Notes: generated by a model not told the origin, from the letters alone. A stretch of DNA of 64,000 bases from an uncultured Fibrobacteria bacterium (GCA_963716395.1 OY970309.1:2016001-2080000), one strand, 5' to 3'; numbered from the stretch's first letter, positions 8,601 to 55,099 are shown. Numbers and translations are program-made.

Positions 8601-9274
8601 AACCGGCCCACCGAACCTTTGACCGAAAACAGGGGCTGCTGATCCATATGCAAATCCGGAAACCAGGCGCTCGAAGCATAGGGCGCGCCCGAGCCGCTTT
8701 TGCGCGTGCCTTCGAGAATGAGTTTATATGATCCGTTGATGGTAAGCTTGGGTTGGTCGATGCCTACCAGCTTCATCCATTCCGGTACCTGAAAGGGGAG
8801 ATCGAACACGAAGGTGCCGGGCGTGCCTCCCGGCGACGCCTCCTCATGCCCCGCGAATTCGAGCAGCCAGCGCCGCCGCAGCAAGAGGTTGAACATGTCG
8901 GTGGAATAGTTGTTGAGCTCACGGTAATACGACTGCCACAAGGCGGTGGAGTCGGCGGTGGAATCGCCCGGCGGGCCGATGCGCACGTAATCGACGATTT
9001 CGACTTCGCGGGTGTCGAAGTTGACCACGTGTTTGCGCTTCAGGTATTTGCTGTTGATTTCCAGGAGGCCTTGCGGCGATTCGATGCCTTTGTTGGGTAA
9101 AAGGCCCTGGAGGGGGCGGGCGGCCTCGGGCACCGGCAAATAGTCGAGGCTTTCCTGATAAACGGCTTCGGCGCGCGACCAGAAAAACAGGCAACACCAA
9201 GAGAGGGCATGTAAAAACCATCCCGCCGGTGCCCCTAATCGTTCGCGGGTATGACTAGTCAAGTGTTGCCGCAA
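2642..9274 (-). CDS. sprA: SprA/Sov-like outer-membrane translocon of the type IX secretion system
   Basis: 2210 aa with a signal region; motifs YKGQGDELEDDVVQEVEAGNTSLSL, GLFGLKARFKLGNL, AYIDNFD, WGGVMRG, DLGQISED, DTEDLD and GEIWVDDL typical of SprA; C-terminal Phe. Confidence 0.85.
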   Translation of the reverse strand: MRQHLTSHTRERLGAPAGWFLHALSWCCLFFWSRAEAVYQESLDYLPVPEAARPLQGLLPNKGIESPQGLLEINSKYLKRKHVVNFDTREVEIVDYVRIGPPGDSTADSTALWQSYYRELNNYSTDMFNLLLRRRWLLEFAGHEEASPGGTPGTFVFDLPFQVPEWMKLVGIDQPKLTINGSYKLILEGTRKSGSGAPYASSAWFPDLHMDQQPLFSVKGSVGRFISVEINSEEGVNTNLKQQLQVSYKGQGDELEDDVVQEVEAGNTSLSLTGTNLTGYTENHQGLFGLKARFKLGNLEITGIASQEGGSQQVQTFGPGNQSSQTTIADKSIDFYRHFWVKLSDRTDYSNPANWTGSYNGYVQGGQNRRPMYVYRLLGATEIASSTNKVTDTSTACAYDASGNKDKNLCVTGRWVSLPVEGTDFIYNDNLRMLTVPSGYSEITLAVRWQGDPIQTSTGEATADTRDMVLIYSKDHKNDPMLDSLMWRNVYAIPRVAPQNVNTFNLSVLDNEGRTGAPGDSITYVRRLGLEKFNQPGKLDVDNNLLFDFTNGFLILPCLTDGVAGGDPGNCLEPMRRVTPDVKFYSETIQDVQNGSSSSNFQVVGQQRQSTFNVRENSFSANGQQCFDISPGTERLVLNGSTVLQKDVDYSVVYETGQISLISPRALDPNATISVSYECNPAFQIQDKVLVGTRLEYKLDNISDQSLLGATALFKSQTTTQQQPEVGHEPFSQLLLGFNARLAGEPKWMTNFANLFPLVHTDAPSKADFEFEVAQSYYDPNTRNSAYIDNFDFSQNVSSLPLTLYSWSKASPPAYDDNGKPDDTLDYRHQGDLIWHSSFKEQYYQIYGNTGNSYTNSREQTLLKFQFTPNDNLQGNSWGGVMRGFTQGFTDQSLKRTLEVVVQGQGGTVYADLGQISEDISIVANHAPNNSNPGGGTPDGKPDGMLESELLPGATTSTNDCGLDGSCSEKPNGYTEIGGEWECKPSCYFVPRTGSDPNHDDYTVPTDGATEEPYGVDGTENNNSGTQGFAFDTEDLDHSGGIDTTNIYLRYRMPLDSACTANFYCQELANGWRKYDIPLYGGGVTIDPTNSQTVQNILANVKIMRLWLGHLPPHVAKSEVLFAEVNIVGNTWLEGQQNTGFEISSNQFGSGDLGDSTYINVPPTVPDSNLLRIDVVNKQQQPNYFQSPNTPHEVDASTGEPLPEIAVVLHYQNLHAGEAVAATRLLSNDPKDLTQYSRLSLQIHPDSDWVKSAKLYDPRQNHVSFGLQLGRDRGDGNSVDYYEMRLHMDTTLQQAGTDQSALWTQNSFTVNLDDLTGLKNDPLYRAFNGRPVSHNLWNPARNDSSLTVSVVGNPNLSQVNWMRLVIYVDSGATEKQNGEIWVDDLDLNGVNQASGMALRSQIQLNFADFINVSGNLQYTNGEFMTLTQQQVTRGNADTKIDYNSNVSLFANKFMPDAWAVNLPISLSYQGSLDRPFVVPYSDINLQGTGLLDISRDLFNGQVTSIHNPGDSLNDVNNRYARVYQTQVSNQQFSTSYSKAMSSKDFWTRALFERPSLEYRYSASDNSQYYSEATTRDYKFKLSYNLSPKENPALKILGFTDKWKFMPSALSDLAVTPLPEKLNLVLADYSFVRDYSLTKPRTVDDLVQSYPAQYTVDLAHGVDLEWRPLPVFDFGYRLDIDRTFDQDHTCFERESFFDPNPSHCDGMFAHNLIFDWDQSYAGQKQTYWEKTSPTDSILVDTTHYGREYGILARERNRNESFHSDLNLNPLSWLTAGGSFNSDYRHTWVDPQLDVFGQGVVVPSHFSANADHDVRLTLGVNPTSLLGSLASASSGLKGLSSALGDFSHKLDAYRPRNLDLTYTVSNKYNNEAFTYAYLRNNGIAWNNLMAYQLGFLYDPSNLMTLFRGEPDPRFFDYLSSPDPALGQTTMNHLVNRTVDLETGFTLPSLKLDLSGSLKYSNQYTLYRSFQPSDTTVIWPEYTVSGSFGDFASKLPVFRNSLRSMTAYTNYNYIHETDFSVYSPTPDVDKITHQLNPLLRVTATTNSDVRIEVSLTGAYTREVDYGKDASADLAQPLTYLGDQQPLVSLYVHDSSLVSPKTTLSAGLAPTLSWNLETQKGIQFWRYYIKLRNNLRMTVNSAINYTLSKIEDLGTVSESQNQFTAMIKPEADYNFTNNVDAKFWLQYEYDQYFNTPNEEYVHSIEIHGEFTMRF

Positions 9275-39286: not shown

Positions 39287-39738
39287 GCCGTACCTCCTCT
39301 GCGATGGAGAATTGTCAGGGGCGGAAGGCCGCCGCGCGCATACGGGTGAAGATCCACCGCATGCCCGCCGCCCGATATTTGCCCGCGAATTTCCTCACGG
39401 TTGCCGCCGGCCTCGAGTGAAAAAGAATCCTGTTTTGCCGGAACAGAACACCTCTCAAAACCTAGACAAAAGCCTTCGGATACCCACCGCGAGACCGTCT
39501 GCTTGATACCGCGGTCTGCGTCGCAGCCATCGGAACGGCTTCGTGGCCGTCCTCCAACGGCCTTCGCCGCCGCTCCGAGCGATGCTGAAATGAATGCGAT
39601 CTCGCGTGAATGGGCGACTTGAACTTGGGAGCTAGAGTTATTGTTGGAAAAGGGGTTTCGATGTACCATTGCGGCCGGGTATTCCCGCACGGCGCCGTTT
39701 CGGCGTCGATAAGAATCCGGATTCCTAAAGGGGCCAAC

Positions 39739-42700
39739 ATGCGGGTAATGGGATCGATTTTTTCCTGCGCGGTGTTATTAAGTATTGCCGAAGCGACCCA
39801 ATACACGGTGACGCCGGGTGCGGTGACGGCCACCGCGTCCCCCTTGCGCACGGGTCGCGTAACGGGAACCGTGCTTCCCATCTGGAATTCCCCGGCCATC
39901 TATGCGGAAATGAAACGCGGTTTGCAGGAGCAGGGATTCCGGTTGTTCCGTTTCCCCAACGGAAGTACCTCCAACCAATACCACTGGAACGGAGCGGGTT
40001 CCTATGACTCGGTTGGCATTTGGCACCCTTCTTCCGATTCCGTGGCGCCGGGTTTCACTTCCAATACCCTATACCGGGGCACCACCAAAAGCAATTACGG
40101 ATCGGTTTTCTATTCGAACCTGACCGATGGCGTCGATTCCACCCTTTGGTGGAGCGATCCGCTGGCCGCCTCCGACGCGTGGGTGGCCTTGGACCTCGTC
40201 AACGCCACGACGGTGGATTCGGTGCAAATCGTGTGGGGGACTTTGCGCCCTGACAGCGTGGCCGTCGGAGCCGTGACGACTTCGGGATGGAATGCCTATG
40301 GTTCTCCCGACGCGGCGTTTTCGCAGCGCGCCCTCGCGGCGGTAACGGGAGCCGTCACCACTTTGCATTTGGACCCGGGGTCCATGCGGTTTTTGGCCCT
40401 ACGCCCACTCGGCATCGGGGCGGACGGAGTGCAAATCGGGGAAATCCGCGCCTGGTCGAATGGAGTTTTGGTCACCTCGAATGTGGCTGATCAGGCCAAG
40501 CAAACCCAAGCCTGGGCGATGTCGGCGCATCCCGGAAACCAGCGGACCAACGATTACAGCGGTACGGGAACGCCCAATTGGACTTTCGCCCTGTTCATGA
40601 ATTACCTCGACTCGCTTCCGGGATCCGAGGCCATGATTTGTGTGAACTATGGCACCGGCACGCCGGAAGAAGCCGCCGCCTGGGTCCGTTACGCCAATAT
40701 CGATCAACACATGGGCATACGCTTTTGGCAGGTCGGCAATGAAATGAACGGGGATTGGGAAGAGGGCGGGCCGGTGACGGCGAAGGAATACGCCCGCAAA
40801 TTCCTGGCGTATGCCAAGGCCATGAAGGCCGTCGACCCTTCGATTTGGGTGCTGGGCCCCACGCTGTCCACCTATGATTTTTCCGGAACAGGCAGCGCCG
40901 ACCTGGATGGAAACACTTGGACCGAGGAGTTCTTGCGCTTGGTGGGCGGGGCGGAAGTGGCCGATGGTATGCGCTATCTCGACGGTTTCGATTTTCACGC
41001 TTACCCCTATTACACTACGGCCGCTCCGACGCCGGATGCCATGCTCGCCGCCCTGCGCGGTCTCGGACCCAATCTCGACACCTTGGCCGCCATGTTGTCT
41101 CGTAACCTACAGGATCCGGGCTCGCGGTGGATCTCCCTTTCGGAATTCAACGCCTCGGTGATCAGTATGGATCTCACCATGCGTCCCGAAAACTCCACCG
41201 GCATGGCCATGATGCTGGCGCAACTGGTGCAAAAATTCGGCGGACAGGCGATGTCGATTGACTGGGAATCCTACGGCGCCACGAGCGGAAATCCCGACGG
41301 TAGCGCGGGTGGTACCTACGGAACGCTTTCCCTGTTCGTGCCGCCGCGCTCCGACGCGGGTTCGTCCATCGACCTCGCGCCCAATGCGCCTTACTGGGGC
41401 AATTGGATGGTTTCCAAAGTTTGGGCCATCGATTCGGCGCAACCCTTGGCCACTACCGTAACCGGCGGAACCTTGTTGGAGTCGCATGCCCTGACCAATG
41501 GCGCGGACACCGCGTATCTGTTCCTGAACATGTCGGCCGTTCCCTGCACGACGACGGTGACGCCTACGTTGGCGCGGGGTTGGATTTATTCGTTCTCCTC
41601 GCAGCAATACAGTTGGAACGGTTCTACTTCGGAAGCTTACGCCGCGCCCAATTCCGGACCTTCGTCGCGGCCGGTTCCGGCTGCGTGGGACGGAAAGTTG
41701 ATCGTCCCGGGTTTCGGAATGACGGTGTTGCGGACCAACGCCTCCCTTCCCGCTCCTTCCGCCGACCAGGTGGTGCAATTGGCGGTGAACAACAAGAACC
41801 TGGAATTCGGCGACACCTTGCTGATCTCGGGGACGGTGATACGCGCGCCCGGCGCTCCGGCGCCGAAGGCGCAACTCGGCGACTCGGTCTTGGAACTCGC
41901 CGCCAGCGACGGCGCTTGGGATGGTCCGCAGGAAGCCTTCGTCGCGAGGATTCCCGTGGACAATTTGGGAGCAGGCATGCGCTGGCTGCGATTGGGAAAT
42001 TCCGATTCGATCCAAATCAACATTACCGGCAAAGCGCGACCTACAGTATGGATCGATCAATTCGAGGACCAAAACCCGGCTTCCGACCAGCCCTCCAAGG
42101 CGCCTTGGACGGCGTATGCCGCCGGAGGCCTGCCCTCCACCCTGACGCTTTCCTTTCCCGTTCGGGCGGGAATGGGTCACGCCATGCAAGCCGCCGCCAG
42201 TATGACCCAGCCGGTCGATCTCGGTTACACCGTTTATGTCGAGGCGGGCCTGAACCTCGACAGCAACCTGGTGGATTCGTCCATTGGCATCCAATTCGAT
42301 TATGCGAGTTGGCATTCCAACGGAGGAACCTTCAATCTCCAAATCGCCACCGACACGGTGAAGAACTACGACGATTACCTCATCGCCTTGCCGGCCACGG
42401 ATTCCGTTTGGCGCACGATGAAACTGAAGTGGAGCGCATTCCAGCAACAAGGTTGGGGCGGCGTCCTAACCGGGCCGCTGCTGGCCCGCCAAGTCAACCG
42501 GCTGAACTTCCGCGCCATCGGCGAAGGCAACGCCACGTTTTGGATCGACAATATCGCCCTGCTTTCGTCTTCCGGGGATTCGATATCGGGAATCCAACCT
42601 GGAAAAACTACGCGCGCCGCGTGGTCCATAACGCCGCATGGATCCCAATGGGCATTCAATTTGCCCGCCGGCGCCACCGTGCGCCTCGTTGGACTCAATG

Positions 42701-42834
42701 GAAGTTTGCTGGGTCGTTTCGAAGCTCGCCGCGCGGGAGTGGTGCTGTATCAACCCCGGCATTCCGGAATCGTATACGCCGTGGTGGAAATCGAAGGAAA
42801 GCGGAACGTGAGATTGTTGCCAAACCTTCGTTAA
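39739..42834 (+). CDS. Secreted clan GH-A glycoside hydrolase (GH44/GH51-like) with a discoidin-like insert, a C-terminal CBM-like domain and a sorting-type tail
   Basis: Signal peptide; FRFPNGS..YHW, VNYGTGTPEEAAAWVRYAN, WQVGNE (acid/base), DFHAYP, SEFN (nucleophile); C-terminal W..F.Q.GWG..FWIDNI CBM11/CIA30-like domain. Confidence 0.7.
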   Translation: MRVMGSIFSCAVLLSIAEATQYTVTPGAVTATASPLRTGRVTGTVLPIWNSPAIYAEMKRGLQEQGFRLFRFPNGSTSNQYHWNGAGSYDSVGIWHPSSDSVAPGFTSNTLYRGTTKSNYGSVFYSNLTDGVDSTLWWSDPLAASDAWVALDLVNATTVDSVQIVWGTLRPDSVAVGAVTTSGWNAYGSPDAAFSQRALAAVTGAVTTLHLDPGSMRFLALRPLGIGADGVQIGEIRAWSNGVLVTSNVADQAKQTQAWAMSAHPGNQRTNDYSGTGTPNWTFALFMNYLDSLPGSEAMICVNYGTGTPEEAAAWVRYANIDQHMGIRFWQVGNEMNGDWEEGGPVTAKEYARKFLAYAKAMKAVDPSIWVLGPTLSTYDFSGTGSADLDGNTWTEEFLRLVGGAEVADGMRYLDGFDFHAYPYYTTAAPTPDAMLAALRGLGPNLDTLAAMLSRNLQDPGSRWISLSEFNASVISMDLTMRPENSTGMAMMLAQLVQKFGGQAMSIDWESYGATSGNPDGSAGGTYGTLSLFVPPRSDAGSSIDLAPNAPYWGNWMVSKVWAIDSAQPLATTVTGGTLLESHALTNGADTAYLFLNMSAVPCTTTVTPTLARGWIYSFSSQQYSWNGSTSEAYAAPNSGPSSRPVPAAWDGKLIVPGFGMTVLRTNASLPAPSADQVVQLAVNNKNLEFGDTLLISGTVIRAPGAPAPKAQLGDSVLELAASDGAWDGPQEAFVARIPVDNLGAGMRWLRLGNSDSIQINITGKARPTVWIDQFEDQNPASDQPSKAPWTAYAAGGLPSTLTLSFPVRAGMGHAMQAAASMTQPVDLGYTVYVEAGLNLDSNLVDSSIGIQFDYASWHSNGGTFNLQIATDTVKNYDDYLIALPATDSVWRTMKLKWSAFQQQGWGGVLTGPLLARQVNRLNFRAIGEGNATFWIDNIALLSSSGDSISGIQPGKTTRAAWSITPHGSQWAFNLPAGATVRLVGLNGSLLGRFEARRAGVVLYQPRHSGIVYAVVEIEGKRNVRLLPNLR

Positions 42835-43776: not shown

Positions 43777-44379
43777 ATGAGCCAATTGCAGGACACTGTC
43801 CTGTTTTTGAAAAGGCATGGTCCATGCCGGACACGGGAAATTGAAGCCGCGGGATATCGGCGCCAGGATCTGCAATACCTGATCAAATCAGGAAAGGTTG
43901 AGCGTTTGGGCCGTGGCATTTACCAAGTGGCCAAGGCTGACGTCCTGACCAATCCAAGTTTTGCAGAATTGTTTTTGCGATCGCCACAGGTGGTCCTCTG
44001 TCTGCTATCGGCGCTCCATTTTCATGAACTGACAACTCAGCTTCCGCACGAAGTTTGGGTGGCGGTGAGAATGAATTCTCGGGCTCCTAAGCTGAATTAT
44101 CCACCGCTTCGGGTTGCGCACTTTTCCGGACCTGCATTCACGAAAGGTGTTGAATTCCATAAGGCGGATGGTATTTCCATCAGGGTTTATAGTGTGGCTA
44201 AAACCGTGGCCGACCTTTTCAAAATGAGAAACAAGGTGGGATTGGATATAGCCATGGAAGCATTGCGCGAAGCGCTCAGGACGAGAAAGACCACCCGCGC
44301 GGAAATAATCAAGATGGCCAAGGTCTGCCGGATGGAAAGGATCATGCGTCCGTACCTGGAAATGGAGGCCGCGATTTGA
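43777..44379 (+). CDS. abiEi: Type IV toxin-antitoxin AbiEi antitoxin
   Basis: N-terminal wHTH (GKVERLGRGIY), CLLSALHFHELTTQLPHEVWVA and YSVAKTVADLFKMRNKVGLDIAMEALR. Confidence 0.85.
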   Translation: MSQLQDTVLFLKRHGPCRTREIEAAGYRRQDLQYLIKSGKVERLGRGIYQVAKADVLTNPSFAELFLRSPQVVLCLLSALHFHELTTQLPHEVWVAVRMNSRAPKLNYPPLRVAHFSGPAFTKGVEFHKADGISIRVYSVAKTVADLFKMRNKVGLDIAMEALREALRTRKTTRAEIIKMAKVCRMERIMRPYLEMEAAI

Positions 44380-45245
44380 GCGATATGGCGCCTTCCGTGG
44401 CGCAGCGACTCCTGAATTTCAGCAAAGGCAATAACGAAGGATATAACTTCATTCTTGTCCGCTACGGTGTGGAGCGCCTGCTCTATCGGATATCCCAGCC
44501 GCCCACTGGCCAGAAGTTTGTTTTGAAGGGGGCGAGCCTTTTCTTAGTGTGCTTTGGGCATGCTTTTCGAACTACACGCGATGTGGACTTGCTGGGCATG
44601 GGTTCCTGGGACTTGGAGACGATATCGAAAATCTTCCGCGCATTATGCATGATCGATACGCTGGGCGTAGACGGATTGCTCTTCCAATCGAAAACGGTTC
44701 TGGTGAGTCGAATCAAAGAGGATCAAGACTATGAAGGCGTGCGCGTGCTTTTGCGCGCCTTGCTGGGGAAAACACACATCGATTTACAAGTTGATGTCGG
44801 GTTCGGAGATGCAATTACACCCGAAGCGGAGCGTGTCCATTTCCCAACCTTACTAGATGGACCGGCCCCTTTCCTTTTGGCTTATCCTCCATACACCGCA
44901 ATCGCCGAAAAATTCCAGGCTATGGTTGGTCTCGACATGGCGAATTCGAGAATGAAAGATTTCTACGACATTTGCGTGCTATTCCGTTCCCTTACTTTGG
45001 ATCCTGAAATTCTGGCAACGGCTGCGCAACGAACCTTTGCGCGTCGTAACATGCCCCTGCCTGGAGAAATGCCCACGGCGCTTACGCGAAATTTTTCCGA
45101 GGATCCGATGAAACAGGCCCAGTGGAATGCTTTTGTCAAAAAGAATCGGCTGACCTTGCCCATGGGTGACTTGACGGAAGTGGTCGAAGAATTGCGCATG
45201 CGCTTTGAACCGATAATGCAAATTCTGGAGTCATGGCGGGGCTGA
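44376..45245 (+). CDS. abiEii: AbiEii/AbiGii nucleotidyltransferase toxin
   Basis: ERLLYRIS, FVLKGA, RTTRDVDLL, VDVGFGD, IAEKFQAM and NSRMKDFYD; 4-bp overlap with abiEi. Confidence 0.9.
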   Translation: MSDMAPSVAQRLLNFSKGNNEGYNFILVRYGVERLLYRISQPPTGQKFVLKGASLFLVCFGHAFRTTRDVDLLGMGSWDLETISKIFRALCMIDTLGVDGLLFQSKTVLVSRIKEDQDYEGVRVLLRALLGKTHIDLQVDVGFGDAITPEAERVHFPTLLDGPAPFLLAYPPYTAIAEKFQAMVGLDMANSRMKDFYDICVLFRSLTLDPEILATAAQRTFARRNMPLPGEMPTALTRNFSEDPMKQAQWNAFVKKNRLTLPMGDLTEVVEELRMRFEPIMQILESWRG

Positions 45246-45815
45246 AATGTTGCGCGCTTCGTCACTTACAAACTGTCTGTACCCCGTTTAGCGAGACATC
45301 GTCACCTTCGCCCTCGCTCCGGTCGATGACGAGGTAAACGTGGCCCTGGGCGAAGTCTTTGGCGATTCGGATCCCACCCACTCGACCGTGCCCCCGACGG
45401 CGACCTCGGGTTCGCCTCCCGTCGGTTCCGCCTAGGCACGCCGATGCGGATGCCATGCGAAACCGCTGCGTTCCCGAAGCCTAAAGGTTACCCATGCGCC
45501 CAAATCGGTGCATTCAACTTGCATGCTTCTCGGCTTCGATGGATTGCGTTGATGAAGACGTAGGAAACGATTCAGGTCATACTGAACGATATGTCCGTCG
45601 CGGGCGAACCCGCGGGTCCACCCGCGGCGACAAAACCCAAATCGCGCGAATTCAAGCGCAAGCGCTTGATTGGGCGGCGAAAGTTAAAACACGGGCTTTG
45701 ATGAACCCCGCAAATTCTGAGCGTTGTAATTGTGTGAGATATGTATCTATAATTCGGATGCGTAAAAAAAGTCCTGGCGCTACTTTAAAACTAAAGCATG
45801 AACGGAGTCGTGAAA

Positions 45816-48800
45816 ATGCTACGAAAATCAATCGTTAATGCTGCAAACGGTTTGTTTTTATCGAAATTAGCGGGGGGGGGGATGAGGCGCTATCGTCATC
45901 GTCGCCGTTATTCTCTCGCCTAAACCATTCGCGCTTTCTAAAACCTTTCGCCTTCCTTCTGGGGCTAATTCTGTTGCCGGCAGCCGGAGTTCAGGCTCAG
46001 TCCTGCTTGGATGGGTATTCGCTTTATTCGGATGTTCAAACCGTTTTGGGCGACCGGGATAGCCTTGCCTCGGGCAATGCGGGCTCCAACGGATACCTGG
46101 AACTCGGCATAGATGGTAAAAGCCACGGGGACTTCGTAGCCAAAGGCAACATACTGCTTAAGGACAGGTCCACGGTATTCGCAAATGTAGCAGCGGGGGG
46201 GTCGGTAACCGTCGGCTCAGGAGCGGTCATCACCGGAACCCTGGTCCAAAACGCCTCCGTGCCTACGTGTGCACTTCCGCAAATAACCGTGACCCCGGGA
46301 GCAGGTGATATCAATGTTTACAACGGAACCACGGAGGAGTTGGCGCCGGGCGCCTATCGTAACGTCCAAGTGTATGGCAATGGCCGCCTGAAACTCAGTG
46401 ACGGCGTATATCGGTTCAATTCTTTGCAGACCTATGCCGATGGCCAATTCGAGTTCGACCCGGGATCCGGCAATATCGAAGTGCTGGTCGCCAACTCGCT
46501 TGCCATCGGTGACCGCACCCAATTCAATTTCACCGGCAACGCGCTGCCTGAACAGGTGAAGTTTCACAGCCAACAGACGAGCGACCTGACCATTGGTACC
46601 GATATTCAGTTCCAGGGCACTTTGGTGGCGCCTCTGGCCACGGTCAAGGCGTATTCACGCACGGTTTTTCACGGGGCGGTTTATGCCAAAACCATCAGTT
46701 TTGAACCGGACGTGAAGGTCTTTTACGAGCCGCTGACTCCCACCACCGTAATGATCTCCAGCCCCATGAGCGGCACGAGCACCAATGATTCCGTGATTCA
46801 GGTGACCTGGGCGGTTTCGGGGACGATGCAAGTGGTGCAAACCACCGATACCCTGACCCATTTCGGCATCAATACGATCAAGCGTTGCTTTGGATCGGTA
46901 TGCGACTCCATCGTCGTTTATTTGGATTCTGTCGAAATTCCCACGCCCAAGGTCGATTTTCGCTATTGCGCCGACCGGTATTTGATCTATTCCCAGCAGA
47001 CGTCCCAACTGGGAGAAGGCGTGCAAACCGTGGGGGGCGACGTGGGATCGGCCAACCAAGTGAACCTGGGGCAACAAGCCGAGATTTGGGGCTCGCTTGT
47101 TTCGAGTCACACCGCCAGCTTGGAGACAAACGCCGTGGTGAAAGGCATGGCGATAGTGGGCGATTCGATAACCCTGGATAGTGGTGCCCAGGTGGTGGAT
47201 AGTATCATCGAACATGCGGTCGGTTTGCAGGCCTGCCCCATTCCCACCTTGCCGAAGATTTCTTATGGGACCGGCAGCCTGGTCATTCCGCCCGGGCCTC
47301 AGCAAAACTTGGCTCCGGGAAAGTATGGAGATGTCCTGACCACTTCCGGGGCCACTTTGCATCTTAGTTCCGGCTCCTATAATTTTCAAAGCCTACGCCT
47401 GGACAGTTTGGCGGCACTAACCGTCGATCTTACCAATGGGCCCATTCAGATCAATGTGGAGGAGTATTTGAGCATTGGCCGGGAGGCCGAAATAGATGAA
47501 GTCGCCGGCGACACCAGTGAATTGATTACCATCTATACGAATCAAAGTGACACCGTGCGCATTCAATCTTTTGCCGGTGTGAGTGGAATCATCGTGGCGC
47601 CCTATGCACCCATTTTGGTGGGTGATAGCGTGGAAGTGGTGGGGCGTTTGTATCGGAAAAGACGTGATCCTTTCTGCGGGTGACATGGTCTACATGCAAC
47701 AGGTGCCCGACTCGTCGGCTTTTCCGCCTGCGCCCTCCATTCCGATAGTCACGGACACGATTCGGACATTTTGACTCCCTGTTTAGCCAGGTCACCCCGG
47801 GCCAGAAATCGCCGATCTGGCATCAAAGCGATCCTTACACCTATTCAAAAGCAGCCTATGGGGCCATTGGCGATGGCGAGCGACAATTTGCGCAAAAGAT
47901 GCATATGGGCTGGTATGAAATTTACGGTAATCAGGGCACGGATAGAACGGGAACCCGAACACCTTGATCACCTCCTTGCTTCCGGCCGTAGATCCTCCGC
48001 CCGGCGAGAATATCGTTCGAAAAGTGGCCACCATAGAGGCCAGAAACGATGCCTATGAATACGGCGCGAAACAATTCGGGGAAGATTTGGAGGACTTCGC
48101 CTGGGCCGATGCCGGCTGGTATGTGTGGCCGTTTAAAGGGTGCTGGGTGGATATCCCTTATCCTTGCATACGCAGATGGCGCTTTCGCATTTGCCATCAA
48201 AGGTTGCCCGGAATATGCGTACGGCCCAAGCCCAGCTTCCGCTTCCACCAGCCGCAAGCGGACGAAATGGTAGCGGCGGACAGAATGCAGATTCTGGATG
48301 CAATTCATCGCGACAAGTGCGCCGGCCGTTCCGGTAAGACAATCTGGGAAATCGGCAATGAACCCAATCTATTCCCCTATATCTTGCCGCAAGACTATGC
48401 CGATCTGGTGCGGGCTTATTACACGCTCATCAAGCAGGCCGACCCCCATGCCGCCGTGGCCTTCGGCTCGCTTTTCGACGTCGATTTCATGAAACAAGAT
48501 GCGAGGGACGCCCTGAACACCATGGCCACTACGGCTATTTTCACTGCAGGAGTCGCCGGAGCGGTGGTACTGAGTCCGCTTGTGGGTATCCTGACAGGAA
48601 TCGTTCTTAACGACGTGCGCGATGAGATGCGTGATAATATTTTCTTCCGCTACACTACGCGCGATTACTTTTCCCTGGTTTTGGCCAACCTCGACCCGAG
48701 CATCAAGCCTGAGGCCATTTCCGTGCATTACTACCCCTTTGACATTGAGGGCCGTTCTACGTCAGACGAGATAAAATCGCATATTGCCAATACCTCGGGC

Positions 48801-49222
48801 TGGCTTTCGTCTGATTTATACCGGAATCGCAGCCAATACGATCCGGTGGTCATTACCGAGACGGGAAATATCAACTGGAAACTCAATGACGAGACCGACG
48901 GTCCTGCCTAGAATGGTTGACATTCTCGATGGCGTGAAAAGGGGCATGTACCTCGGGGAAGCCAACGTGAATTACAATGCGCTGGTACTTTGGTACAAAC
49001 CGCTCACAGTCGACCCCAAATTCAATGGTTTGATCAAGCATTCCGTTTGTCGGCATCGACAACCCGCCGTTCACGAGGTTTATCAATGATGCGAAAACTG
49101 ATGTAAATGACGTTCAAGGATTTATCAATCTCAATGGATGGCCCTCTTTTTGTGGCGACATCAACAGTCTCGGCTTAGAATACTACCGAAGAATCAATGG
49201 AGTTGAATGTGGTGCGCCTTAA
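45816..49222 (+). pseudogene. Large secreted protein (two beta-helix-like N-terminal domains plus a GH-A-like catalytic domain), read through several single-base frameshifts (real or sequencing errors)
   Basis: GGAG RBS and ATG 45816, a G10 tract, signal peptide ..FAFLLGLILLPAAGVQA; two homologous domains (LAPGxY..V....L.LS.G.Y.F.SL..G..VAP.A); then IWEIGNEPN, LIKQADP, SVHYYP and ITETG; ends CGDINSLGLEYYRRINGVECGAP*. Frame breaks near 45880, 47655, 47765, 47950, 48895 and 49050. Confidence 0.6.
45872..45881 (+). repeat. Poly-G (G10) tract in the 5' coding region; candidate phase-variation switch
   Basis: With G10 the ATG 45816 frame stops after MRRYRHRRRYSLA; G11 or G8 would fuse it to the long signal-peptide frame. 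Confidence 0.55.
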
Positions 49223-49709
49223 TACTGCATTCGTGTTCGCGTTTTCCTTATGCCTCTTTGGATGCGGTTTGTTTTCCGATTCTTCCTACGAAGAAGACGT
49301 TTTAAACGATAGAAGTATTGTGGACGAAATTATCAAGGCCAATCCGGTATTGGATTCTGCTGTACAAGCCGGTCATTACTTTCTGCCCTACAGTAGCGAA
49401 TCCGGTCGAATTACTGGAAATTTGGATTTAAGCGATTTAGGGCTCAACGACAGCAATTTTTATTTTCCTAAAAGCATTAATGATTTTAAAATCGTCAATC
49501 AGGTTAATCTTATCGGTAACGACTTTACCGATTTGCCACAAGGTATACACCAAAAAAAATGGGATGTCGTATTGGTTTTGGGCAACAAAATGTGCAATCC
49601 TAGCCAAGAAACAATCGATTATTTGGATAGTTTGATGAAAGGTTTTCCCGGTGGTTACTGGCGCGACTCCCAGCACTGCAGCGATTCCATTCCGGCGCCC
49701 TCGCCATGA
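49197..49709 (+). CDS. LRR lipoprotein, array copy 1 (intact)
   Basis: Lipobox CLFGC; LRR-like GNLDLSDLGL, VNLIGNDFTDLP and VLVLGNKMC; C-terminal WRDSQHC cap; overlaps the stop of the upstream gene (true start may be GTG 49209). Confidence 0.75.
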   Translation: MELNVVRLNTAFVFAFSLCLFGCGLFSDSSYEEDVLNDRSIVDEIIKANPVLDSAVQAGHYFLPYSSESGRITGNLDLSDLGLNDSNFYFPKSINDFKIVNQVNLIGNDFTDLPQGIHQKKWDVVLVLGNKMCNPSQETIDYLDSLMKGFPGGYWRDSQHCSDSIPAPSP

Positions 49710-49869
49710 AATGAAAAAAAATTCAGGAGGTGATTTTCTGCCTGGGCATTTTATCACAACGAAACCATCCGGGCGGTTTATTGCCTCCGGCTTTCTCCTG
49801 TCTTGTTCGGGTATCCAAACTTTTGCGGTGACATGAACAGTCTCGGCTTGGAATACTACCGAAGAATCA

Positions 49870-50386
49870 ATGGAGGTGCTTGTGTTGCGCCTTAATATTT
49901 TGTTGGTTTGTTTGATAACATTGTTTATCTACGGATGCGGGTTTCTATTTGGAGATTCTTACGAGGAGGACAAAAATAATGACTGGAAAATCGTACGTGA
50001 AATAATTGCGGCCAATCCCGTGCTCAGTTCTGCAATTGATTCCGGCCACTACTTTTTGCCGACAGATGCAGAGTATGGCAGGATTACTGGAGAATTAAAT
50101 CTAGGTGGTTTGGGATTAAATGACAGCAATTTTTATTTTCCCGCAAGTATTCGTAATTTCAGAATAGTGAAATCCTGTTAATCTAGCCAACAATCAATTC
50201 ACAGACTTACCGAGAGGTACCCGAAATAAGAATTGGAATTGCCGTCTTAGTTATGGGCAAACAAAATATGCAACCCTAGCCAGGCAACGATCGATTATTT
50301 GGATAGTATTGATGAAAGGATCACCAGGAGGTTACTGGCGCGACTCCCAGCACTGCAACGATTCCATTCCGGCGCCCTCGCCATGA
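49870..50386 (+). pseudogene. LRR lipoprotein, array copy 2 (about four single-base insertions)
   Basis: Lipobox IYGC; ELNLGGLGL; removing the extra bases restores VKSVNLANNQFTDLP..VLVMGNKICNPSQ..GGYWRDSQHCNDSIPAPSP*. Confidence 0.7.
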
Positions 50387-50543
50387 AATGAAAAAATCAG
50401 GAGGTGATTTTCTGCCTGGGCATTTTATCACAACGAAACCATCCGGGCGGTTTATTGCCTCCGGCTTTCCCTTGTCTTGTTCGGGTATCCAAACTTTTGC
50501 GGTGACATGAACAGTCTCGGCTTGGAATACTACCGAAGAATCA

Positions 50544-51058
50544 ATGGAGGTGCTTGTGTTGCGCCTTAAATAATTTGTTGGTTTGTTTGATAACATTGTT
50601 TATCTACGGATGCGGGTTTCTATTTGGAGATTCTTACGAGGAGGATAAAAATAATGACTGGAAAATCGTGCGTGAAATAATCACGGCCAATCCCGTGCTC
50701 GGATTCTGCAATTGATTCCGGCCATTACTTTTTGCCGACAGATGCAGAATATGGCCGGATTACTGGAGAATTGGATTTGAGTGGATTGGGACTTAGTGAT
50801 AGTGATTTTTATTTCCCTAAAAGCATTCAAAATTTCAGAATCGTCAAATCTGTTAATTTATCTCGTAATAATTTCACAGAGTTGCCATTAGGTACCAGGC
50901 TTAAAAGCTGGTTGTCGGTTTTGGTATTAGGGAATAAAATGTGCAACCCCAGTACAGAAACGGTGGCGTACTTGGATACCTTAATGAAGGGATTTGGTGG
51001 GCCCTATTGGCGAGACTCCCAGCGCTGTAATGATTCTATACCGGCGGCAGTCCCATGA
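50544..51058 (+). pseudogene. LRR lipoprotein, array copy 3 (insertions in the 5' part)
   Basis: 5' end nearly identical to copy 2; ORF 50732-51058 reads ELDLSGLGL..VNLSRNNFTELP..VLGNKMC..WRDSQRC. Confidence 0.7.
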
Positions 51059-51219
51059 TTGAGGCCAAAAGTTAGGCGGTGGTTCTGTGCTAGGGAAATC
51101 AGGTTCTCTGACAAAGTCTTGTCGGCATTTTTCCCCCTTGATGGCCCTAGCGTTCTACGGATGGTCCTCATTTTGCGGTGACATGAACAGTCTCGGCTTG
51201 GAATACTACCGAAGAATCA

Positions 51220-51736
51220 ATGGAGTTGATTGCGGTGCGCCTTAATATTTTGTTGGTTTGTTTGATAACATTGTTTATCTACGGATGCGGGTTTCTATTT
51301 GGAGATTCTTACGAGGAGGACAAAAATAATGACTGGAAAATCGTGCGTGAAATAATTACGGCCAATCCCGTGCTCAGATCTGCCAATTGATTCCGGCCAT
51401 TACTTTTTGCCGACGGATGCCGAGTATGGCCGGATTACTGGAGATTGGATTTAGATGGTTTGGGATTAAATGACACCAATTTTCATTTTCCCGCGAGTAT
51501 TCGTAATTTCAAGATCGTTAAATTCCTTAGTTTATGCCGCTAACGAATTCTACAGACTACCGTAAGGCACAAGAGACAAAAAATGGGAGAGTCGTGGTGC
51601 CTTGGTTCAACAATATTTGCAACCCAAGTCTGAAACGGTGACGTATTTGGATAAAATGATGGAGGGATTTCCGGGTGGTCCCTATTGGCGCGATACCCAG
51701 CACTGTAGTGATTCCACTCCGGCGCCCTCGCCATGA
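51220..51736 (+). pseudogene. LRR lipoprotein, array copy 4 (several indels)
   Basis: Same signal/lipobox DNA as copies 2-3; LDLDGLGLNDTNFHFPASIRNFKIVK; ends WRDTQHCSDSTPAPSP*. Confidence 0.65.
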
Positions 51737-52064
51737 AATGAAAAAATCAGGGGGGTGATTTTCTGCCTGGGCATTTTATCACAACGAAACTATCCGGGCG
51801 GTTTTTTGCCTCCGGCTTTCTCCTGTCTTGTTCGGGTATCCAAACTTTTGCGGTGACATGAACAGTCTCGGCTTGGAATACTACCGAAGAATTAATGGAG
51901 TTGAATGTGGTGGATCTGAATCGGGGTGAACCTTATCTTCGATACCCACCGGAATCTTTGAAGTCGGAACAGAAGGCGTTGAGGCGGGATGATTTGGACG
52001 GCAGTAAGAAATGGGTGCTTCAAAAACCGGCTGAAACAGGAATCAAAAAATCCGGGAGGTTGAT

Positions 52065-53201
52065 ATGTACAAGACTGTTACGGTGATACTTTGGTTGTTG
52101 GCGGCAATCGTGCATGGGCAATCGGTGTGGACTATGGAGAATCCATTGCCGACCCTAAAACAACCGATCTCCCTCACCTATGGAGACTCCCAATTCGTGA
52201 TGGTGGGTGAGGATAGCGTCGTGCTTACCTCTCCGGATGGATTAAACTGGACGCTTGGGAATTCGGGTACATTTTTTGCTCTGAACTCGGTGGTATGGGG
52301 TGGTTCCCAATTCGTTGCCGTGGGGATAGGAGGATACATTTTCACCTCGCCGGACGCCATTAGTTGGACATTCAGGACATCAGGGACACTTCTCTTGCTG
52401 AATGCCGTCGCCTTTGGTGGCAATCGTTTCGTGGCCGTTTCGCAAAGCGGCGCCATCCTCAGCTCGCCGGACGGCGTCACCTGGACGCCTGGCAATTCGG
52501 GAATATCGACCGCCTTGTATTCCATTACTTACGGCGATTCCCAATTCGTGGCCGCGGGGCAAGGCGGCGCCATCCTCACCTCGCCGGACGGCGCCACCTG
52601 GACATCCAGGAGCTCAGGTACTGCATCTATTCTTTATTGCATCACCTATGGCGGCTCCCAGTTCCTGGCCGCGGGGCAAGGCGGCACCATCCTCACTTCA
52701 CCGGACGGCATCAACTGGACGCCTAAGAATTCGGGCACGACGGTCGACTTGAACGCAGCCACCTATGGCGGCGCCCAGTTCGTAGCCGTCGGCAATGGCG
52801 GCACCATTCTCACCTCGCCCGACGGCGTCAACTGGAAGACCGTGATACTCGAAACGGGGGGGGGGTTGTCTGCAGTCGCATTCGGCAATTCGAAGTATGT
52901 GGTTTTCGACGGTTTAAATTTGCTGTTTTCGACCCCAGACGGCGCTGGCGCCATTGTCGGCTCGGTGGCCCGCGGCATTTCGCTGCGCCTGACTTCTTCC
53001 GATCTCTTCGCTTCGTATCCAAGGTTTTCCGGCCAGTCCGTGCACGCAGGCATATTTACCGCCAGTGGAAACAAGGTGATGGAGGCTTGGGGCCGAGGCG
53101 ACGGAATCTCTCTGTCCATCGGCGGCTTGGCCAATGGCGTTTATTCACTGGATGTCGTGTGCGGTAAGGAGCGGGCCAGTAGCAGGTTTGTGAAGCGTTA
53201 G
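52065..53201 (+). CDS. Secreted beta-propeller repeat protein (BNR/YCF48-like) with a T9SS-type C-terminal domain
   Basis: GGGAGG RBS, signal peptide, six ~39-aa repeats (FVAVG.GG.ILTSPDG.NWT) and C-terminal LANGVYSL..RFVKR. Confidence 0.8.
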   Translation: MYKTVTVILWLLAAIVHGQSVWTMENPLPTLKQPISLTYGDSQFVMVGEDSVVLTSPDGLNWTLGNSGTFFALNSVVWGGSQFVAVGIGGYIFTSPDAISWTFRTSGTLLLLNAVAFGGNRFVAVSQSGAILSSPDGVTWTPGNSGISTALYSITYGDSQFVAAGQGGAILTSPDGATWTSRSSGTASILYCITYGGSQFLAAGQGGTILTSPDGINWTPKNSGTTVDLNAATYGGAQFVAVGNGGTILTSPDGVNWKTVILETGGGLSAVAFGNSKYVVFDGLNLLFSTPDGAGAIVGSVARGISLRLTSSDLFASYPRFSGQSVHAGIFTASGNKVMEAWGRGDGISLSIGGLANGVYSLDVVCGKERASSRFVKR

Positions 53202-53474: not shown

Positions 53475-53537
53475 ACCGCTGGTTATGGCAGTAAAACCGA
53501 TTTTGTCCCAAAAATGGCGCTTTATTGCGATTAACAT

Positions 53538-53561
53538 TGGTATATACTATGGTATATGCCA
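53538..53561. promoter_or_regulatory. vapBC operator-like inverted repeat
   Basis: TGGTATATAC-TATG-GTATATGCCA (one mismatch) directly before the vapB RBS. Confidence 0.55.
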
Positions 53562-53571
53562 CGGAGGGAAA

Positions 53572-53808
53572 ATGACCATTGCAAAACTGTTTATGAACGG
53601 AAGAAGCCAGGCCATCCGGTTGCCCAAGGAATTCCGGTTTGAAAACGAGGAAGAAATCATGATTAAGCGCATGGGCGAAATAGTGTTGCTCATTCCCAAA
53701 AACAAATGGGAGGACATTCTCGTCCAGGCGTTGGAATCCTTTCCCCGCGACGTCGCCTTCGAGCGCCTCGACAACGACCCCGGCCGTGAGCGCGACATTG
53801 CGATATGA
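53572..53808 (+). CDS. vapB: VapB antitoxin (AbrB/MazE/SpoVT DNA-binding domain)
   Basis: AKLFMNGRSQAIRLPKEFRF; GGAGGG RBS; overlaps vapC. Confidence 0.9.
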   Translation: MTIAKLFMNGRSQAIRLPKEFRFENEEEIMIKRMGEIVLLIPKNKWEDILVQALESFPRDVAFERLDNDPGRERDIAI

Positions 53809-54206
53809 AATATCTCCTCGACACCGACATTTGCATTTACGTGCTCAAGCACCGATACCTGCGCTTGGTGGAAAAGCTGCGGCGGGTGGGCATTGAAAAT
53901 GTCGGCGTGACGACCATCACATTGGCCGAATTGGAATACGGTGTTGCCAACAGCCAAAAGCCGGCGGAAACCACGGCCCGGCTTTATGAATTCCTCGCGC
54001 CCTTCTCATTTCTTGATTTCGACGCGGATTCGGCGCGCCACTATGGCGGAATACGCAAGACACTGAAGGATCAAGGGCGGCCGATTGGCCCCATGGATAT
54101 TTTAATCGCCTCCGTGGCATTGGCCCATGACCGGGTGCTGGTCACCAACAATATCGGGGAATTCACGCGGGTGCCGGGCTTGAAAATCGAAAATTGGGCG
54201 GCTTGA
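53805..54206 (+). CDS. vapC: VapC PIN-domain toxin
   Basis: YLLDTDICI, ITLAELEYG, IGPMDILIA and LVTNNIGEFTRVPGLKIENW. Confidence 0.92.
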   Translation: MKYLLDTDICIYVLKHRYLRLVEKLRRVGIENVGVTTITLAELEYGVANSQKPAETTARLYEFLAPFSFLDFDADSARHYGGIRKTLKDQGRPIGPMDILIASVALAHDRVLVTNNIGEFTRVPGLKIENWAA

Positions 54207-54405: not shown

Positions 54406-55099
54406 TCAATTCCCTTTCCAATGCACGTGATAAAGGTCATGCCGCCTGTCCTTCAGGTTGCGCACCGTGCCGTTGAAGCGGGCCGTGATCAAGGTTTCGG
54501 GCCGGATATCGGCGATGGCCACCGTTTCCACGTTCGGCGTGGTATCGGCCGCGATACCGTCGCGGGCGAAGGGAAAGTCGCACGGCGTCAGGATGCAGCT
54601 TTGGGCATATTGAATGTCCATGTTCGCCACATTGGGAAGATTGCCGACATTCCCCGACATCACCACATAGATTTGGTTTTCCACCGCCCGGGCCTGGCAG
54701 CAATAACGCACCCGCAAATAGCTTTGTCGCTCGTCGGTGCAAAAGGGCACGAAGAGAATGAGGATGCCTTCATCCGTCAGATGCCGCACCAATTCCGGGA
54801 ACTCGGAGTCGTAGCAAACCAACACCCCGATGGGTCCGCAATCGGTTTGAATGGCGTTCAGGAAATTGCCGCCTTCGACATTCCACCAAAAAGCCTCGCT
54901 TATCGGCGATGGCGATGACGAATTGCCCGGCGGGGAAATGGTTGATTTGGCCGATGACGGCTCCGATTTCATAGCCTTTCATTCCGCTATCCGCGTAAGC
55001 CTTGGTGGTCAAATCACAAATAGCCTGGGCATCGGCCATCACTGCGTTGCGGACAATGATCTTGTCTTTGGAATTCGCGAAGCGGAAAGAGGAAGTCAT
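54406..55099 (-). pseudogene. Internally deleted GNAT + carbon-nitrogen hydrolase gene
   Basis: N-terminal GNAT start (IIVRNA..D..AI..L..KAY..GQINHFPAGQFV) joined out of frame to a nitrilase C-terminal part (IGVLVCYDSEFPE, RVRYCCQARAVENQ, DTTPNVET). Confidence 0.7.

Follow-up and report, generated by a model that had tools for sequence, protein, structure and literature searches.

In polymorphic toxin systems, both leucine-rich repeat (LRR) immunity proteins and 'polyimmunity loci' have already been named, in the sections of Zhang et al. (2012, PMC3482391) that are drawn on here. For the T6SS (type VI secretion system) of Vibrio cholerae, the corresponding portions of Kirchberger et al. (2017, PMC5361080) describe arrays of immunity genes which accumulate 3′ of the effector, where old members are kept, and which are shaped by recombination; new effector-immunity modules displace old effectors there, and the array members belong to unrelated families that came by horizontal transfer. 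Here we analyse a locus in 64,000 nucleotides of an uncultured Fibrobacteria bacterium (GCA_963716395.1, OY970309.1:2016001-2080000; hereafter the window), in which the gene of a large secreted protein is followed by a tandem array of small LRR lipoprotein genes. Positions are those of the window, and the whole cluster lies on the + strand.

Our preferred reading, to which we give about even chances, is that the locus encodes an effector-like glycanase and its cognate inhibitor, an LRR lipoprotein whose gene was multiplied by unequal crossover into a homogeneous poly-immunity array. A Sec-exported enzyme, consisting of two β-helix modules and then a divergent barrel of glycoside hydrolase (GH) clan A, would be an antagonistic glycanase, and the lipoprotein would act as its cognate inhibitor or immunity partner, with the concave LRR face gripping a subfamily-specific helix before the C-terminal tail together with loops of the catalytic face. 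The cluster is rare in the Fibrobacterota and would be horizontally mobile.

Repeat detection and alignment delimited, between 49148 and 51920, four head-to-tail units and a fifth partial one with a start-to-start spacing of 673-676 bp, in line with an initial annotation of this DNA that had described four units at ~675 bp and a stub. As that annotation had also noted, a near-identical repetition of the upstream gene's final ~25 codons heads every unit: a 76-column copy of its 3′ end, 84-100% identical pairwise, was aligned at 49148-49222, 49821-49895, 50496-50570, 51171-51245 and 51846-51920 (tail copies 1-5). The first of these (49148-49222) is the original tail, defined by family alignment and forming a Cys...Cys element that all of the GH family shares. 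The start codon of the ~170-codon lipoprotein gene falls inside the tail element. For copy 1, the ATG at 49197 stands 26 nt ahead of the end of the large gene, whose stop is at 49220-49222, and the resulting 26-nt overlap bears out the overlap first reported at 49222; the lipoprotein gene is probably translationally coupled to the large gene.

Copy 1 (49197-49709, 170 aa) is intact, an ORF in which frameshift-aware alignment finds no event. It is followed by a spacer (49717-49820) and tail stub 2 (49821-49895), delimited together as 49717-49895 by repeat families and alignment, as is the next such interval (50391-50570), a spacer with tail stub 3 (50496-50570). Copies 2 (49870-50386) and 4 (51220-51736) were traced by three-frame translation and frameshift-aware alignment, and copy 3 (50544-51058) by these and its ORFs. 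Between copies 3 and 4, alignment places a divergent spacer (~53% identity to the other spacers) with tail stub 4 (51171-51245) at 51067-51245. The series ends at 51742-51920 with a terminal spacer and tail stub 5 (51846-51920), including a remnant lipoprotein start at 51895, recognized by homology to an intergenic region of a related genome (G031, below). By tblastn, neither the tail, the lipoprotein nor the GH piece has a second location in the 3.75-Mb genome.

At 43% GC, the array falls below the large gene (54%), the gene that follows (57%) and the genome as a whole (60%), which confirms the AT-richness first remarked on; in 5/5 loci carrying it, the lipoprotein gene is AT-rich relative to its neighbours. 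Across the four units and the stub, the lipoprotein copies are 60-78% identical to one another as proteins. Identity is unevenly spread along the units: among copies 2-4 it is 95-96% in the 5′ third and 66-73% in the LRR part, and between the 3′ ends of copies 1 and 2 it is 98%. The array thus consists of tandem, diverged paralogues of one family beside the candidate toxin gene, the composition of a homogeneous poly-immunity locus, in which immunity would be their role.

The gene pair is linked elsewhere, a check that the initial annotation had proposed. We found four other loci with the lipoprotein, in two Fibrobacterota metagenome-assembled genomes (G031 and G017) and two metagenome contigs (L023 and L024), and in 4/4 of them the lipoprotein overlaps the 3′ end of an intact orthologous large gene, which brings the loci with an overlapping start, including the window, to 5/5. 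The G031 locus (L021) comprises a large gene of 1139 aa, one lipoprotein and then a β-propeller gene; that of G017 (L022) has the same order with a large gene of 837 aa. In L024 the large gene is cut by the contig end and is followed by one lipoprotein and the propeller gene, and in L023, where it is also cut by the contig end, two intact lipoproteins, a fragment and a tail stub precede the other end of the contig. The order large gene, lipoprotein(s), β-propeller gene is constant wherever the contig extends far enough. Array length, another of the proposed checks, varies, with 1, 1, 1 and at least 2 lipoproteins per locus, and 4 in the window. Copy 1 is 69-72% identical to the orthologous lipoproteins.

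The lipoprotein is present in 3/296 Fibrobacterota species genomes and in 0/11 of the window's own genus. Its relatives amount to 10 clusters among 5.8 billion and, at E<=1e-30, to four representatives among 1.84 billion. Related enzymes without lipoprotein are common: the GH piece was matched in 14/31 genomes of bacterial family f1.

The large protein is laid out as a signal-peptide-like extended N-terminus (judged by eye), two β-helix modules up to ~47650 and a GH-A-like barrel at ~47773-49222. The N-terminal half matches DUF7305 (1.1e-14) and pAdhesive_15 (7.3e-08) in Pfam, both of them β-helix families. No Pfam match was obtained at E<=0.01 for the GH piece of the window (315 aa), nor any Pfam family over the GH domain at E<=0.1 for the two full-length orthologues, and the GH family profile gave 0 sequence matches to PDB chains at E<=1. 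The gathering cut-off of PF11790 (Glyco_hydro_cc, which we take to be family GH128), 21 bits, is passed by 4/6 distant paralogues from the same bacterial family (21.6-29.2) and was not reached by the window piece or the two full-length orthologues.

Motifs and models nevertheless agree on a fold. GNEPN, H.YP and TE.GN are invariant in 12/12 aligned sequences, GNEPN and TE.GN being present in the window's frames. GNEPN (domain residues 204-208) follows the strand 199-203 and TE.GN (379-383) lies in the strand 376-381, so that, as in clan GH-A, strand 4 is followed by an Asn-Glu acid/base and the Glu nucleophile belongs to strand 7; the catalytic glutamates are residues 206 and 380 of the domain. 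The AlphaFold2 (AF2) model of the GH domain is a (β/α)8 barrel (pLDDT 76.9, pTM 0.80), for which Foldseek returned 27 PDB matches at E<=0.001, all to GH-A-type enzymes. The best are barrels of GH53, GH5, PslG, GH30 and GH128, and TM-scores are modest (0.25-0.5). Leads from the Atlas agree with this assignment. The GH-A-like domain of the initial annotation is therefore upheld by the invariant motifs, the AF2 barrel, Foldseek and the Pfam matches of the paralogues, and the C-terminal domain is, on sequence and model, a predicted divergent GH-A-type barrel.

Members of the lipoprotein-linked subfamily carry three insertions in this domain: a Cys-rich four-strand element, a hydrophobic helical hairpin and a helix just before the tail. 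The hairpin (domain residues ~255-310, window ~48540-48640) is membrane-span-like, with a 19-residue hydropathy of 1.5-2.4 in 8/8 distinct members; no segment of the domain is more variable, and paralogues without lipoprotein lack it. All 8/8 distinct orthologues share the one GH-like domain, with 47-77% identity, and only the helix and the hydrophobic insertion are hypervariable. The C-terminal domain thus does not differ in kind between strains, as that of a polymorphic toxin would. The tail itself (C..N..G..Y..R..G..C) is conserved in paralogues without lipoprotein as well, and we therefore regard it as part of the GH fold and not as a recombination tag.

The putative lipoprotein is composed of a hydrophobic leader, an N-terminal helical cap and three LRRs. 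In 11/11 sequences C23 is invariant after the hydrophobic stretch, and G22 and G24 are near-invariant. Although no Pfam LRR match was found at E<=0.01, profile positions 72-135 match multi-repeat proteins (2439 matches at E<=0.001, down to E=4e-26). The AF2 model of copy 1 has a pLDDT of 80.6; its top Foldseek matches are all LRR proteins, the best with an E of only 0.035, and the feature and structure matches in the Atlas are all LRR. Profile search, Foldseek and Atlas thus sustain the earlier LRR assignment, as a 3-repeat LRR.

Binding was addressed by complex prediction with the intact G031 enzyme domain and its own lipoprotein. The pair scored 0.75 (runs 0.75, 0.82, 0.60), whereas the best of three controls scored 0.00. 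The complex mark was reached by 58/80 solved complexes and 2/110 mismatched pairs, and this calibration is rough as our own alignments were used. The runs agree in >=81% of contacts, and the partner pLDDT is >=83. On the lipoprotein, contacts lie on the LRR strands and the concave face (residues 59-80, 102-107, 123-129, 149-153); on the enzyme, they involve the inserted helix (domain residues 459-476) and the loops after strands 1, 2 and 8, including N62 and D432, two near-invariant residues of the catalytic face. The prediction supports binding of the lipoprotein to the enzyme domain, and the locus accordingly has the make-up of a toxin-immunity pair, an adjacent cognate gene with a product that binds, as far as the in silico model goes. 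Anatomy, linkage, folds and the distribution of variability are read from the sequence; binding is meant here in silico only, and inhibition, toxicity, target and delivery route are what we infer around it.

The same results bear on an alternative in which the lipoproteins would be an independent variable surface family, serving phage or predator evasion or adhesion, their adjacency to the enzyme an operon convenience and the complex a false pass. Tandem arrays of diversified LRR lipoproteins are indeed known in other bacteria, and the two mismatched pairs above the mark, with the roughness of the calibration, leave some room for it. It sits poorly with the strict linkage and overlapping frames of all five loci, with a docking helix that is an insertion peculiar to the lipoprotein-linked enzyme subfamily, and with controls that all three remained at 0.00; we hold it to be improbable.

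Docking on the active site had been expected. The confident contacts, which centre on the C-terminal helix and on the loops after strands 1, 2 and 8, do not include the catalytic glutamates and so do not show it. The contact at the helix would suit a docking pair: as an outer-membrane anchor or as an assembly partner, the LRR lipoprotein would keep the glycanase on the cell surface through the enzyme's C-terminal helix, in the manner of cohesin and dockerin; the propeller may then cooperate, and the array would be a plain paralogue expansion. The contacts on the catalytic-face loops after strands 1, 2 and 8, with N62 and D432, fit such a dock less well, and so does the variability of the surfaces. 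Enzyme interface positions are more variable than the rest (0.51 vs 0.34, p=0.0016), and so are those of the lipoprotein (0.58 vs 0.40, p=0.0007); hypervariable contact surfaces on both proteins would be unusual for a housekeeping dock. Among 453 windows of the domain, the docking helix ranks 39th in variability and the hydrophobic insertion first. Surface exposure alone could produce part of the interface effect.

Returning to the array, its growth can be reconstructed by comparison with the single-copy locus of G031, where a degenerate tail copy and a remnant start are already present 3′ of the lipoprotein. This intergenic region aligns over its whole length with the terminal stub region of the window, so direct repeats must have flanked the lipoprotein gene in the common ancestor, and with such repeats unequal crossover accounts for exactly the 675-bp unit. 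Having a tail copy on both sides of the ancestral lipoprotein gene, the array would expand and contract in 675-bp steps, while gene conversion would keep the unit ends alike and the LRR contact region would diversify. The mosaic units, with similar ends and a diverged middle, show the pattern expected from conversion at the ends and diversification in the middle.

The initial annotation had likened the stubs to the toxin 3′ stubs of orphan-immunity loci. Displacement is not needed to explain them, as the single-copy G031 locus already has one. Their likeness to the enzyme is confined to its final 25-45 residues, and the spacers further upstream are unrelated to the enzyme gene (32-36% identity), so that none of the units combines a displaced toxin C-terminal domain with an immunity gene, as orphans of the Rhs and contact-dependent inhibition (CDI) type do. 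Longer stubs were considered and set aside: tblastn extends two of them to 35-45 residues at 53-57% identity, and upstream of the GW motif no likeness is seen by eye. A structured RNA in the tail was also rejected (z-scores for the five copies +0.58, -1.42, -2.18, +1.08 and +0.46; no common fold), as was cassette capture linked to an integrase or tRNA, with no tRNA in 36-60 kb and no recombinase among the 14 flanking ORFs scanned.

The large gene is broken in this assembly. The initial annotation had given a secreted gene of ~1130 codons; this length holds by homology (45798-49222, by Pfam and orthologue comparison), although not as a single open frame, six frame breaks being present in the gene. 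Its start codon candidates are 45798 and 45816, and its ORF pieces measure 569, 315 and 101 aa. Frame changes were located near 47653, 47770, 47944, 48894 and 49036, in the linker and the GH-like domain, by tblastn against the two intact orthologues and DNA alignment with G031. Aligned with the intact 1139-aa orthologue of G031, to which it is 78% identical in the N-terminal part and 61% in the GH part, the gene passes through frames 2, 3, 1, 3, 1 and 2. Sequence reading and three-frame translation place the remaining break at a homopolymer of ten G (45872-45881), which separates the start codon and the first ~25 codons from the body of the gene. This run sits in a 17-nt stretch present in the window and missing from G031 in the pairwise DNA alignment, and the frames across it would rejoin with one extra G or two fewer. 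The run may serve phase variation or may simply have been miscalled.

The four lipoprotein units of the initial annotation are there, although only copy 1 is intact. Copy 2, which shares 67% identity with copy 1 when it is read through and each break is set to X, has four +1 shifts, at 50170, 50240, 50259 and 50308; copy 3 has two frameshifts, near 50566 and 50701, and is a single open frame from about codon 50 on; copy 4 has five, besides an in-frame stop at 51563. In all, ~17 disruptions (16 frame changes and one stop) fall within 47.6-51.8 kb. Elsewhere in the window are unbroken ORFs of 2210, 1074 and 914 aa, and the genes that flank the locus (AbiE, VapBC and propeller) are intact too, which confines the breaks to it.

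Such a density of frame breaks, in a window otherwise unbroken up to 2210 aa, is what one might expect if the array were an assembly artefact of a single gene. The other loci argue strongly against this, since intact orthologous genes are linked there and the length of the array varies; the independent metagenome contig L023 has two intact copies and a fragment, and the terminal stub is common to the window and G031. The units moreover differ by 27-34% in their LRR parts, and are therefore not collapsed or duplicated reads of one gene. We consider an artefactual array very improbable.

Whether the breaks are themselves genuine is a separate matter. Relaxed selection on the window's enzyme gene was rejected: with no excess of amino-acid change on its branch, dN/dS there (GH part, 0.24; N-terminal part, 0.17) resembles the values of the intact orthologues (0.34/0.22 and 0.14/0.14). 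There is thus no sign of long decay, and the breaks are either recent or consensus errors at a variable locus. We lean slightly towards real mutations, and consensus errors are a credible explanation that falls a little short of even chances. A frameshift shared by copies 3 and 4 was examined as proof of real mutation and discarded, the candidate sites, 157 and 165 nt past the respective start codons, being ~8 nt apart in register and differing in sequence. If the breaks are real, the effector would be in decay here and its immunity gene would have been kept.

The propeller protein is the third conserved member of the cluster. Its gene (52065-53201, 378 aa, intact), identified as an ORF with 117-nt (39-aa) blade repeats, encodes a protein 72% identical to its equal-length neighbour in G031, and homologues also lie 3′ of the lipoprotein in G017 and L024. 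Within it, 52174-52836 holds five in-register 117-nt blade units, 63-72% identical, each with an SPDG..W motif. Past the propeller gene of G031 (L021:5681-5887), there is a fragment of ~70 residues of a second GH-like gene, from the region around GNEPN, which contains a TGA and over 42 residues is 79% identical to the window protein. The fragment hints at additional rearrangement of that locus.

A possible link to antagonism comes from the N-terminal module. It has a single paralogue in the genome (E=4e-116, with 51% identity along 349 aa), which stands at the head of an RHS/YD-shell protein of 2515 aa; Pfam recognizes in this protein a teneurin-like YD shell, RHS repeats and, at the C-terminus, a Tlde1 toxin domain. 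This RHS-Tlde1 locus (G000:C1:847219-861000; L027:720-15211) is a classical polymorphic toxin locus; the toxin gene is followed by a lipoprotein-like ORF of 190 aa, by three orphan C-terminal fragments of RHS proteins (624, 339 and 385 aa) and by small ORFs, of which one has DUF4431 and another a second Tlde1 domain. The ORF after the toxin is as AT-rich as the LRR genes. As for delivery, the genome encodes both the T6SS sheath protein TssC (VipB/TssC gene at G000:C1:3317771-3318673) and SprA of the type IX secretion system (T9SS) translocon, a 2210-aa ORF on the - strand of the window (2642-9274) matching SprA_N with 94.7 bits, and either may be the route of delivery.

The surroundings also bear on the docking pair. 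An AbiEi/AbiEii pair (43777-45245) and a MazE-like/PIN pair of VapBC type (53485-54206) bracket the cluster, and 43-54.3 kb has a GC content of ~50%, against ~60% for the genome, which gives it the look of an acquired island; neither a tRNA nor an integrase turned up. At the edge of the low-GC island, a CN_hydrolase ORF (54406-54972, - strand) matches profile positions 130-255 of 256 and looks 5′-truncated. Just upstream of the island, 39610-42834 (+ strand) encodes a 1074-aa protein with a GH44-like domain. This nearby enzyme, the conserved third gene, the occurrence of the N-terminal module on subtilase-type secreted enzymes and the lipoprotein-less relatives of family f1, which are common secreted glycanases, would all be at home with a surface dock. 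A low-GC island between AbiE and VapBC modules and the patchy distribution of the cluster in the phylum and genus would not, and the genome holds four would-be anchors for one enzyme with this tail. The docking pair is the main rival of our reading; it accounts for the third gene and for a contact at the C-terminus, leaves both the array and the hypervariability of the contact surfaces unexplained, and is in our judgement rather unlikely.

Several observations weigh against an effector-like glycanase with a cognate inhibitor. The conserved propeller gene is not needed by a two-component toxin/immunity model. The N-terminal module also heads subtilase-type proteins (P0165, P0166), and its role may be that of a surface or stalk module in general and not one in toxin trafficking. 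The catalytic glutamates (206, 380) stay outside the confident contacts, and since surface residues generally vary more than buried ones, the variability tests do not single out an arms race. The orphan units hold only ~25-30 toxin codons, unlike the displaced toxin domains of Rhs/CDI orphans, and in this genome both the candidate effector and 3/4 of the lipoprotein copies read as broken. Finally, we know of no GH-A barrel described as an antibacterial toxin. The carbohydrate toxin section of the survey of polymorphic toxin systems lists only FlgJ-like glycohydrolases and an aldo-keto reductase (PMC3482391).

A more detailed form of this effector-like reading, which we advance tentatively, is that of an undescribed Fibrobacterota effector class: a Sec-exported GH-A glycanase with a membrane-span-like hairpin, neutralised by a 3-repeat LRR lipoprotein bound at an exosite. 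A hypervariable helix, with its codons just upstream of the junction of the two genes, would set specificity, and the conserved 75-nt junction would be a recombination handle by which immunity cassettes are built and reshuffled. Were the effector-immunity reading true, a new toxin fold, the GH-A barrel, and a very small LRR inhibitor would be added to bacterial effector-immunity pairs. The partners, of ~500 and ~150 residues, would form a compact natural pair with co-varying contact surfaces, and the array would display its own mode of growth, unequal crossover at a repeat derived from the 3′ end of the toxin gene. A docking pair would instead represent a new way to mount glycanases on the surfaces of fibre-degrading bacteria.

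Among described LRR inhibitors, the plant polygalacturonase-inhibiting proteins (PGIPs) have ~10 repeats and inhibit GH28 β-helix enzymes of another organism. The pair described here resembles PGIPs and other LRR inhibitors in that a concave LRR face is predicted to sit on a glycoside hydrolase and variable residues lie on the LRR strands; unlike PGIPs, it involves a 3-repeat bacterial lipoprotein encoded beside its own GH-A-type partner, with no sequence kinship beyond the repeat. The enzyme shares with clan GH-A (PF11790, GH5, GH53, GH39/PslG) the predicted (β/α)8 fold, the NEP acid/base motif and a strand-7 Glu nucleophile, and differs from the families of the clan in having, in the window and its orthologues, no Pfam or PDB sequence match and three subfamily-specific insertions.

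Compared with V. cholerae T6SS orphan arrays, as far as they are treated in the portions of PMC5361080 used above, the locus likewise has an immunity-type array 3′ of a candidate effector, shaped by recombination, in which old immunity genes would be kept. In contrast to V. cholerae, its members are paralogues of one family in a fixed 675-bp unit, which fits unequal crossover at a direct repeat, and the large protein has a signal-peptide-like N-terminus in a genome with both TssC and SprA. With polymorphic toxin systems (the same sections of PMC3482391), it has in common a large secreted multidomain protein, a small partner gene directly 3′ and tandem partner paralogues, and its N-terminal module occurs on an RHS-Tlde1 toxin. 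It departs from them in several respects: a GH-A-type barrel is not among the carbohydrate-related toxin domains in those sections, the C-terminal domain is not swapped between strains (orthologues 47-77% identical), the orphan units contain only ~25-30 toxin-gene codons, and a third conserved gene is present. For the Fibrobacterota, a full-text literature search on polymorphic toxins turned up only an RNase toxin in the passages it returned, and no description of effector-immunity pairs of this kind was found in the literature searched. The initial annotation had known of no description of the pairing; LRR immunity and poly-immunity were already named in those sections of PMC3482391. What is new at this locus is the GH-A-type domain, the tiny LRR, the exosite-like docking helix, a repeat taken from the candidate toxin's own 3′ end, and the phylum.

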